Part shown: positions 54,784 through 56,832 of the stretch, one piece after another
Layout: every line of letters starts with the position of its first letter
How positions within the stretch are numbered: the first letter of the stretch is position 1
NCBI GenBank assembly: GCA_001789445.1
Contig: MFZQ01000013.1
Coordinates: 4,596-68,595 of the forward strand
Direction: 5' to 3'
Source: Candidatus Roizmanbacteria bacterium RIFCSPHIGHO2_02_FULL_40_13b
GTDB taxonomy: Bacteria > Patescibacteriota > Microgenomatia > UBA1406 > HO2-37-13b
Length of the DNA: 64,000 nt
Translations under genes and position numbers: made by a program
The notes under the pieces: model-generated
The model's input: the letters and a program-made list of their open reading frames with translations, nothing else
Databases searched by the model: none
Told to the model about the DNA's origin: nothing

Positions 54784-56832
54784 ATGAATCGTAAATATAC
54801 TCCTAAAGATATAGAACCTAAAATCGCACAATCCTGGGACGATGAAAATATCTATAAGTCAATTCCCCCTATCTCCCAAACCCCTCCTCCCCCAAACCCT
54901 AAAAAGGCATATATCTTAGTCATGTTTCCATATCCTTCAGGCGAGGGTCTGCATACGGGGCATGCGCGAGTTTATACGGGAACAGATGTCCTTGCTCGTT
55001 TTTTTCGTATGAAAGGAAAATCAGTACTTCACCCAATGGGATTTGACGCTTTTGGTCTTCCTGCCGAAAATGCCGCAATTAAGCTCCAAAAAAATCCAAT
55101 AGATATGGTTCCTGAAAATATTGCAAATTTTAAGCGACAAATGAAGCTCCTGGGCTTATCGTATGATTGGAGTAGGGAATTTTCCACAACAGATCCGGAA
55201 TATTACAAATGGACACAGTGGCTTTTCATTCAATTTTTCAAAATGGGGCTTCTTCATAAGAAAGAAACACCAATATTCTATTGCCCAAACTGTAAAACAG
55301 GACTTGCGCAGGAAGAAGTCTTGGAAGATGGGACGCATGAACGATGTGGGACAGCTGTTGAAGAGCGCAACTTGCCGCAGTGGATTTTTCGAATCACTAA
55401 GTATGCTGACAGACTTCTCGATGATCTTGAAGGTCTTGATTGGCCAGCCGGGATATTACAAATGCAGAAAAATTGGATAGGGAAGAAAGTGGGGAAATCT
55501 GGGGAGTCAACATATCATTTGCGAGATTGGATTTTTTCACGACAACGATATTGGGGGGAACCGATACCGATGATTTTTTGTGATAAATGCGCTGAAAAAA
55601 AAATCAACTACTGGGAAGGGGATAGGAGTAGAGGAGTAGATCATAACAATAATGAAGTGGAACAAATGATATCAGGATTTGTGGATGAAGTGAAGGATGA
55701 TTTATATGGATGGTTTCCGGTTGAAGAGAAGGATTTGCCCTTAAAACTTCCCTATGTGAAAAGTTATATGCCAACGGAAAGTGGGCAGTCGCCCTTGTCG
55801 CAAATTGAAGAGTTCGTACATACAACGTGTCCACATTGTGGTTCAGATGCTCGAAGAGAAACAGATACAATGCCCAACTGGGCAGGAAGTAATTGGTATT
55901 TCTTGTATTTTGGCCGTCAGCATGACAAAACTCGCCCACCGTCTTTACAAAATTGGAAAACAGAGATCGGGGATCCATCTGCCCAGTGGCTTCCAGTGGA
56001 TTGGTATCTGGGTGGGGCAGAGCACGCGGTGCTTCATCTTCTGTACGCACGATTTTGGGTCAAAGCGATGAAAGATATAGGACTTGTTTCTTTCAGTGAG
56101 CCCTTTGCCAAGCTTCGAAGTGTGGGAATGGTCCTTGCGTCCGATAATCGAAAAATGAGCAAGTCGCTTGGAAATGTAGTAAATCCGGATGATGTGGTTT
56201 CCGAATATGGAGCCGATACATTACGGGTGTATGAGATGTTTATGGCGCCATTTGGCCAAGAAGTTGCCTGGTCAGAAAGTGCAATCCAGGGTGCCTACCG
56301 ATTTTTGCAAAGAATTTGGCAGATATTCATAAGCTCTGATAGTATAACAGAAAATCAGGATGAGGAAAACTTTGAACTAGTTGCCGAGCTTCAAAGTACC
56401 ATTTCAAGGATCGAGTCAGATATCACGAACGTGAAATTTAATACATCTATTTCAACAATGATGGAATTCATCAATTTGTGGGAAAAAAAGAAGTTATCCC
56501 GTCAGAGTAGTGCAAAGTTCCTACAAATACTTGCCCCATTTGCTCCATTTATGACCGATTATTTATGGAGAGAAATCTTAAAAAATAAAGAATCAATTCA
56601 TATTTCTACATGGCCGAGTGTTGATAAATCGGTAATTTCTATCAAAAAAGTTACCATAACGATTCAAGTTAATGGCAAAATGAGGGGGGTAATTTCGTTC
56701 GAAAATGGGGACGTGGAGGAAAAAGAGGCCATTGAAGAAGCCCTAAAGCTAGAAAATGTGAAAAAATATGTCGTCGATGATACTTATAAAGTAATCTACG
56801 TCAAAGAGAGAGTATTGAACTTTGTAGTTTAA
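54784..56832 (+). CDS. leuS: leucyl-tRNA synthetase lacking the CP1 editing domain
   Basis: [12 protein letters not shown] (HIGH), KMSKS, [33 protein letters not shown]. 682 aa. Start moved to the ATG at 54784. Confidence 0.85.
   Translation: [682 protein letters not shown]

Follow-up and report, generated by a model that had tools for sequence, protein, structure and literature searches.

A bacterial-type leucyl-tRNA synthetase without the CP1 editing domain in Candidatus Roizmanbacteria

The leucyl-tRNA synthetase (LeuRS) of Mycoplasma mobile has neither the CP1 editing domain nor the leucine-specific domain, carries a nonapeptide linker and is active (PMC3643597), and loss of LeuRS editing in this organism has been linked to mistranslation at leucine codons (PMC3553970). 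The literature that we searched takes this enzyme as the natural example of a LeuRS without CP1, tied to measurable mistranslation. In that full-text literature, which leaves most subscription journals outside, we found papers on M. mobile and the Mollicutes and no description of a CP1-less LeuRS from the Candidate Phyla Radiation (CPR) or Patescibacteria. Here we report on a stretch of 64 kb (the window) from the genome of a groundwater bacterium of the CPR, which the sources label Candidatus Roizmanbacteria (Patescibacteria/CPR), whose leuS gene encodes a LeuRS of 682 amino acids (aa) without CP1; we call this protein P0001 or the window LeuRS. The deletion is real and independent of Mycoplasma, and the catalytic Rossmann core, both zinc motifs and the anticodon-binding and C-terminal domains are intact under normal constraint. 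We consider it very probable that this is the functional, orthologous leuS, from which CP1 was excised in frame to leave a minimal LeuRS of the M. mobile architecture.

Some natural synthetases of other reduced genetic systems, yeast mitochondrial threonyl-tRNA synthetase (PMC4267643) and Mollicutes prolyl-tRNA synthetase (PMC4014445), likewise lack a module for editing in cis, although they belong to other synthetase families and the editing fold concerned is a different one. Another parallel is an E. coli LeuRS engineered to carry the M. mobile nonapeptide in place of CP1 (Tan et al., cited in PMC3643597), which shows that a short linker is compatible with aminoacylation. It supports the activity that we predict for the window LeuRS, but it is an artificial construct whose kinetic values are not transferable to the natural protein.

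The closest of all is M. mobile LeuRS itself (3ziu; Li et al. 2011 PNAS, pmid 21606343; Yan et al. 2013, PMC3643597), which is likewise bacterial-type and lacks CP1. The M. mobile precedent invoked by the sequence-only reading of this DNA is a real one: M. mobile LeuRS is the best sequence match of the window LeuRS (5e-158), and 3ziu ranks first in structure as well (PMC3643597, PMC3553970). Both proteins have a linker with a central Gly between NWIG and (Y)xL(R/Q)DW, KEEIDGKIT in M. mobile and VGKSGEST here, and both have a tetrapeptide at the place of the leucine-specific domain, GKDG (GKDG-(Q)KMSKS) in M. mobile and SDNR (SDNR-KMSKS) here. The two bacteria are also alike in having small genomes and in depending on other cells. 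The proteins differ in origin, which is independent, and the window LeuRS is only 39% identical to 3ziu; it has an insert of about 40 aa in the second zinc motif that M. mobile LeuRS lacks. Editing loss and mistranslation are experimental results in M. mobile, whereas for the window LeuRS they are predictions. The features of the window LeuRS are as follows, each on the + strand.

54784..56832, + strand: leuS coding sequence, 682 aa plus stop, a bacterial-type LeuRS without CP1 (open reading frame, TIGR00396, Pfam)
54952..54963, + strand: HIGH signature, here HTGH, residues 57-60 (H57, G59 and H60 invariant in a 70-sequence alignment)
55282..55347, + strand: ZN-1 zinc-binding motif, C167, C170 ... 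H185, C188 (invariant columns)
55471..55530, + strand: junction, residues 230-249 (20 residues), a direct translation in frame with the open reading frame and contiguous with M. mobile LeuRS, NWIGKEEIDGKITYKLQDW
55489..55512, + strand: eight-residue linker VGKSGEST, residues 236-243, in place of CP1 (from alignments; predicted tip of a beta-hairpin)
55579..55839, + strand: second zinc motif, C266, C269 ... C349, C352 (invariant Cys columns)
55591-55710, + strand: lineage-specific helical insert of about 40 aa inside the second zinc motif, residues ~270-309, after CDKC
56140..56151, + strand: tetrapeptide SDNR, residues 453-456, at the site where many LeuRS have the leucine-specific domain
56152..56166, + strand: KMSKS signature, residues 457-461 (invariant in the 70-sequence alignment)

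In the window LeuRS, VGKSGEST connects NWIGKK to YHLRDW. Translation of 55471-55530 agrees exactly with the earlier claim that eight residues join the two conserved blocks. At this junction the alignment to Thermus thermophilus LeuRS skips from residue 229 to residue 404, so that about 175 residues are missing from the window LeuRS; the 637-aa chain 3ziu_A of M. mobile aligns across the same place unbroken. In a 120-sequence alignment, 118 relatives have 155-231 residues in the CP1 block; the window LeuRS has 3. A Pfam scan did not find the LeuRS editing domain (PF13603) in the window LeuRS, whereas in the CP1-containing relative P0002, which served as positive control, the domain scored 3e-40. 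In addition, a hidden Markov model (HMM) of CP1 alone, built from the 118 relatives with 191 positions and run with filters off, matched nothing in any of the six frames of the 64-kb window (best E = 0.69). Because the question is one of protein architecture, a test for chance matches does not apply.

The insert of about 40 aa was considered as a replacement for CP1 and ruled out. It is helical in the structural model and has no counterpart in the LeuRS of T. thermophilus or M. mobile, but it is common to the CP1-containing Roizmanbacteria relatives, which makes it a trait of the lineage and not a substitute for CP1. The short SDNR-type form is also shared by all Roizmanbacteria relatives, those with CP1 included (T. 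thermophilus residues 582-637 are unmatched in the window LeuRS), and the loss of the leucine-specific domain is therefore older than the loss of CP1.

An AlphaFold2 model of the window LeuRS, calculated from the 70-sequence alignment, reached a mean predicted local distance difference test (pLDDT) score of 89.2 and a predicted template modelling (pTM) score of 0.88. At the junction it places a strand at residues 234-236, a turn, and a second strand at 242-244, which together form a beta-hairpin. In a Foldseek search against the PDB, both chains of M. mobile LeuRS 3ziu ranked 1 and 2 (E = 1e-58) with a template modelling (TM) score on the target of 0.84-0.91. Full-length LeuRS structures were covered to about 0.6 of their length (TM score on the target ~0.6), because their CP1 has no partner in the window LeuRS. 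Taken together, the missing PF13603, the gap against T. thermophilus and the hairpin in the model bear out the claim that CP1 is absent. CP1 is wholly missing from the window LeuRS, and the alignment to reference LeuRS and the domain scan, which had been proposed as checks, revealed no editing domain elsewhere in the protein.

The remainder of the protein is that of an ordinary bacterial LeuRS. It scores 705.1 bits against TIGR00396 leuS_bact, an NCBIfam equivalog with a cutoff of 548.4, and Pfam assigns tRNA-synt_1 (PF00133, 1e-49) and Anticodon_1 (PF08264, 8.6e-17). The alignments to 3ziu and 1h3n reach the final residue, and the anticodon-binding and bacterial C-terminal domains are both present. 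HIGH (HTGH, 57-60) and KMSKS (457-461) are intact, as the sequence-only reading had stated, and the length of 682 aa that it gave holds with the ATG at 54784. A single long open reading frame spans 54733..56832 (+). The start at 54784 was picked by the gene callers in all independent assemblies, aligns with the MKKYxPKD start of homologues and has AGGA 4-5 nt ahead of it. One database member uses an alternative ATG, and the resulting extension is probably not translated:

54733..54783, + strand: in-frame upstream extension from the alternative ATG, which would give 699 aa

The sources name the window LeuRS inconsistently, as 'hypothetical protein' and as 'leucine--tRNA ligase'. Residues 28-38 near its N-terminus (54865-54897) form a proline-rich insertion that close relatives lack and that the model treats with a pLDDT of ~56; in the relative P0004 another insertion occupies this place.

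The genome is metagenome-assembled, and the short in-frame repeats found at the CP1 boundaries of relatives could mislead an assembler, so that a real gene with CP1 might have been collapsed or shortened by ~525 bp during assembly or binning. Against this, the identical 682-aa product occurs on 21 contigs from varied samples and assemblers, among them NCBI metagenome-assembled genomes (MAGs), MEGAHIT assemblies (k141, ENA), Logan assemblies of three SRR runs and a JGI metagenome, and its neighbours are constant. The identical sequence also stands under three NCBI protein accessions. A one-residue allele, P0121 (E561K), is present on 4 further contigs with an unchanged junction, and a CP1-containing version more than 62% identical to the window LeuRS was absent from ~15 billion proteins. 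These three results, the identical gene on 21 contigs, the P0121 allele and the lack of a CP1-containing version, make an artefact very unlikely. The same architecture is shared, moreover, by the related protein P0062 and at least nine further lineages. We regard this explanation as having next to no probability, and the mis-assembly that had been named as a possible refutation is set aside by the 21 contigs, with their independent samples and assemblers.

A large internal deletion is also a frequent early step of gene decay, and the open reading frame might in that case be a pseudogene inactivated by the deletion. LeuRS is essential. The deletion is in frame and stops exactly at the domain boundaries, which argues against decay, and the constraint on the rest of the protein was examined in two ways. 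First, we inspected the window LeuRS at the 227 non-CP1 columns with a conservation of 95% or more across the 118 CP1-containing relatives. It retains 226 of these near-invariant columns, and the median relative deviates at one. The lone deviation is the following.

55042..55044, + strand: Phe87, Trp in at least 95% of relatives (T. thermophilus W79)

This Trp-to-Phe change is conservative, lies within HPMG(W/F)DAFG and adjoins the Asp aligned with T. thermophilus Asp80, which we take to bind the amino group of the substrate. Second, the mean distance to 114 outgroup LeuRS is 0.508 for the window LeuRS versus 0.529-0.540 for its CP1-containing sisters, which indicates that its evolution has not accelerated. 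These retained-column and relative-rate tests were used in place of the ratio of nonsynonymous to synonymous substitution rates (dN/dS), as E561K is the sole difference in the only other allele and even the nearest relative has diverged too far. With 226 of 227 core columns, all zinc ligands, HIGH and KMSKS retained, divergence not accelerated, a confidently folded model and the activity of an M. mobile LeuRS of like architecture (PMC3643597), we judge a decaying gene to be extremely improbable.

The origin of the architecture was examined in a neighbour-joining tree on 646 non-CP1 columns with 100 bootstrap replicates. P0001 forms a clade with P0002, P0003 and P0004 in 100/100 replicates, and P0002-P0004 are CP1-containing LeuRS of Patescibacteria. 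The CP1-less architecture is thus convergent and not the mark of a monophyletic family. Only one other CP1-less protein was present among the best 120 matches, P0062 (707 aa, from a different MAG), which pairs with the CP1-containing P0106 in 98/100 replicates. Because P0001 and P0062 each group with CP1-containing proteins, CP1 has been lost at least twice in the small Roizmanbacteria clade, independently of Mycoplasma. The linkers of the two proteins differ (VGKSGEST in P0001, QSEDGSKTI in P0062), but the boundaries coincide.

A possible route to the deletion is indicated by the gene of P0002, the nearest CP1-containing relative. This gene carries an in-frame direct repeat, GAGGGAAT, at both CP1 boundaries (10/11 nt), with AAG AAG GAG GGA AT on the N side and GAA AAA GAG GGA AT on the C side. 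A deletion between these repeats would yield NWIGKK-EG-IGERQTT-FHLRDW, near the junction seen in the window. It is therefore plausible that short in-frame repeats flanking CP1 slipped or recombined and that the domain was lost in this way. In the reading that we favour, the two beta-strands that normally lead into and out of CP1 are joined directly by the eight-residue, Gly-containing turn.

The window is 64 kb of the genome, which leaves room for a normal leuS elsewhere and for a specialised role of the short copy, for example in resistance to an inhibitor of the editing or synthetic site or in a non-canonical function. Self-immunity paralogues of LeuRS are known (agnB2, 5ah5; see PMC5059758). 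Some CP1-less LeuRS may be accessory, as suggested by P0149, a CP1-less protein of a high-GC genome whose gene adjoins a restriction-modification system. The position of the window gene speaks against such a role. Two neighbours serve as anchors.

32585..33577, + strand: trpS, a class Ib synthetase gene (Pfam tRNA-synt_1b, 1e-76), which adjoins leuS upstream in L009 and L010
56981..58255, + strand: M16 peptidase gene (Pfam Peptidase_M16 and M16_C), downstream neighbour of leuS in L009 and L010

The order leuS, M16 peptidase, prepilin peptidase and ATP synthase genes in the window matches that of the CP1-containing locus L010 and of the CP1-less locus L009. In both of those loci trpS directly precedes leuS; in the window it lies about 21 kb upstream, with a block of lower GC between. 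The ancestral leuS position is thus kept, the protein nests with orthologues at 100/100 without rate acceleration, and no other LeuRS of the window's MAG was found among the best 120 matches. Small genomes are the rule in the Roizmanbacteria group, and a duplicate synthetase would be unexpected in them. The conserved synteny (trpS ... leuS - M16 peptidase) and the orthologous placement in the tree make a second full-length leuS elsewhere in the genome unlikely, and we assign a low probability to an auxiliary paralogue.

Fidelity would also be unchanged if editing were kept in trans by a separate CP1-like or unrelated deacylase. Factors of this kind exist for other synthetases (YbaK, ProX and AlaX; PMC4014445), and for some LeuRS, CP1 by itself folds stably and has yielded crystals (for example 3o0a and 2ajg). 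On the other side, no CP1-like sequence occurs in the six frames of the window. The matches to the CP1 profile in a set of 5.8 billion proteins were short PF13603 proteins, none of which comes from the window's MAG or is more than 54% identical to the CP1 of the clade. The search for a free-standing CP1 that had been suggested earlier thus found none in any frame of the window and none in the public protein set. Two short CP1-only reading frames on long contigs were inspected as candidate trans-editing factors and rejected, since each is the central part of a broken leuS gene, with the N- and C-terminal pieces on either side. At L095:1608-3993 and L096:3121-5762, leuS is split into three reading frames (N-terminal core, CP1, C-terminal part). 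Such genes are either frameshift errors or pseudogenes and can mimic free-standing editing domains in databases. To our knowledge, no free-standing trans-editing family of LeuRS CP1 has been described. We consider editing in trans to be improbable, to about the same degree as an auxiliary paralogue or slightly more so.

The CP1 that the sister lineages retain is itself unusual. The motif F-T-(A/V)-(Y/F)-P-A-W (PAW) replaces the usual F-T-T-R-P-D-T in 12 of the 118 relatives, including all four CP1-containing members of the local clade (P0002-4 and P0106), and is always accompanied by GTG-x-I-R-C-S-A-H-D. The change from TTRPDT to TAYPAW corresponds to T248A, R249Y, D251A and T252W in T. thermophilus numbering.

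L010:6736-6756: PAW-type editing-site variant in P0002, residues 246-252

At position 252, a bulky residue blocks access to the amino-acid pocket. The editing site of LeuRS is recognised by its threonine-rich region (PMC3664829), and proofreading is reduced in the T252Y mutant of E. coli LeuRS (PMC11327963). Both Asp residues of HDxRD are retained in 118/118 CP1-containing sequences, and the ratio of CP1 to core divergence is 1.25 for PAW-type pairs versus 1.54-1.58 for canonical pairs. To judge from the sequences, the PAW-type CP1 looks remodelled rather than degenerate and under purifying selection, and the variant may reflect an altered editing specificity or an exchange of CP1 between lineages. 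Since this CP1 is not decaying, the deletion removed a domain that the sisters still maintain, with a remodelled pocket. We therefore rejected the idea that editing had decayed before the deletion, as the TAYPAW motif of the sisters might suggest: 12 sequences share a conserved PAW-type CP1, in which HDxRD is intact and divergence relative to the core is no faster than in canonical CP1. The sisters recall those species of Mycoplasma whose LeuRS has a point-mutated or degenerate CP1 (PMC4014445), in that LeuRS editing is eroded or altered in reduced genomes and the threonine-rich motif of P0002-4 and P0106 is changed. They differ from them in that 12 diverged sequences conserve the PAW-type CP1, which evolves no faster than the canonical one and keeps both Asp of HDxRD.

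The 12 PAW-type LeuRS and the two CP1-less proteins were also tried as one clade, which neighbour-joining recovered in 0/100 replicates, and the PAW-type proteins are not monophyletic on the core tree; either the tree resolves its deep nodes poorly or lineages have exchanged CP1. Other relatives have further variants of the threonine-rich motif, namely TK(Y/F)WET in P0052, P0054, P0076, P0088 and P0094, TT(A/T)P-V in P0012, P0020, P0031 and others, and TTKPET with GYGALMSVPGGD in P0060, P0071, P0072 and P0085. One of the groups with a non-canonical motif has, in addition, no His in HDxRD. In Microgenomates/Roizmanbacteria the editing site of LeuRS seems unusually plastic.

To survey the spread of the CP1-less architecture, 1.84 billion cluster representatives were searched exhaustively with HMMER, the query being a 56-residue peptide across the junction, and the best 150 matches were examined. 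Among them, 16 proteins, including P0062 and P0001, the latter added for reference, had no match to the CP1 HMM and only 5-13 residues between the motifs. For nine full-length CP1-less LeuRS the absence of PF13603 was confirmed by Pfam, and public data contain full-length CP1-less LeuRS of at least nine lineages besides those of P0001 and P0062. Their backgrounds include a Bacillota MAG, a MAG labelled Nanoarchaeota, a Mycoplasma-like sequence, a high-GC genome and a contig of 400,845 bp. When the linkers of 11 independent CP1-less LeuRS were aligned, a Gly was invariant within (D/N/S)-G-x-x-(T/S)-(Y/F); it is Gly240 in the window LeuRS. In a collection of species-representative genomes the 80 loci nearest to P0001 all contained CP1 (matched region 2.3-2.8 kb), and a junction-profile search of the annotated set of 5.8 billion proteins matched only gene fragments of 40-100 aa. 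As far as these collections reflect it, the architecture is rare but recurrent.

Three of the CP1-less proteins deserve separate mention. P0259 (L093:4001-5731) is a 576-aa LeuRS with the six-residue linker KKNDGT, encoded among gyrB, dnaN, tmk and secA on the 400,845-bp contig, which has 421x coverage and is probably a tiny symbiont genome. P0145 (627 aa, from the Nanoarchaeota-labelled MAG) is LeuRS-like, with degenerate class I signatures (HIGY for HxGH and KFSKR for KMSKS), and may be a non-catalytic paralogue. P0149 (L094:4001-6319), of 772 aa and from the high-GC genome, adjoins type I restriction-modification methylase genes, not housekeeping genes, and could be an accessory copy.

In the window itself, the block between trpS and leuS (33590-54707) has a GC content of 0.34-0.40 versus 0.41-0.47 and may be an inserted island. 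It contains large reading frames of 743, 657 and 935 aa without a Pfam match, a beta-helix protein, a histidine kinase and an AAA_14/DUF4143 ATPase. Five small membrane-like reading frames, one with an SH3_3 domain, lie directly upstream of leuS. Downstream, at 58306-59913 (+), a 535-aa reading frame without a Pfam match contains YNARFYNPTLGVFTQPDTVEGPNRFAYVGGNPIMANDPSGH, which we take to resemble the RHS-repeat-associated core motif of polymorphic toxins; at the corresponding place L010 has a MazE/PIN pair and a 421-aa reading frame. Rfam and tRNA scans of the 64-kb window gave no match.

If the window leuS is, as we think very likely, the functional gene of its genome, its product would activate leucine and charge tRNA-Leu, as the conservation of the core and the activity of M. 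mobile LeuRS (PMC3643597) suggest. Such an enzyme would have no hydrolytic site for clearing tRNA-Leu mischarged with Ile, Met or norvaline. The window LeuRS is thus predicted to lack CP1-dependent post-transfer editing in cis and is probably unable to clear mischarged tRNA-Leu. Accuracy would then depend on the synthetic site, perhaps with tRNA-independent pre-transfer hydrolysis; pre-transfer editing in that site is possible, and some mischarging with isoleucine, methionine and norvaline would be tolerated.

Several points weigh against a functional, non-editing orthologue from which CP1 was cleanly excised. The P0001-type protein is known from a single population (one 90% cluster). Leucylation by the window LeuRS and its loss of editing are read from sequence, from the structural model and by analogy with M. 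mobile. Tighter discrimination in the synthetic site or pre-transfer editing could preserve fidelity, and no mistranslation would then be predicted. It is possible that a second leuS or an unrelated trans-editing factor lies beyond the 64-kb window. Purifying selection acts on the CP1 of the sisters no less strongly than on canonical CP1, so the loss was not obviously a neutral clean-up of a dead domain. Finally, the microhomology route depends on one extant relative, which is 68% identical.

The lineages found in the survey suggest that this deletion has taken place many times over and that the linkers have converged. A wider view would combine these observations: CP1 excision would be recurrent and convergent, at least twice in the Roizmanbacteria clade and in at least nine other lineages, including the symbiont genome of ~400 kb, with a Gly-centred beta-turn linker each time, and in the Roizmanbacteria clade it would have removed a remodelled CP1 (T252W type) that the sisters keep under purifying selection. 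We offer this combined view tentatively, as one that has a fair way to go before it could be called likely.

The leuS gene of the window adds an independently evolved example from a reduced-genome lineage very different from that of M. mobile. Benzoxaborole antibiotics trap tRNA-Leu in the CP1 editing site, and to judge from the structures, enzymes without CP1 should offer them no target. Several questions can now be put to a direct test: does the loss of LeuRS proofreading generally go with extreme genome reduction, what is the least linker geometry that closes the Rossmann fold without CP1, and are CPR proteomes 'statistical' at Leu codons? If the window LeuRS and its counterparts are the sole LeuRS of their genomes and truly non-editing, some members of the CPR and some ultra-small symbionts would have a 'statistical proteome' at Leu codons, and adaptive or tolerated mistranslation would reach well beyond the Mollicutes.

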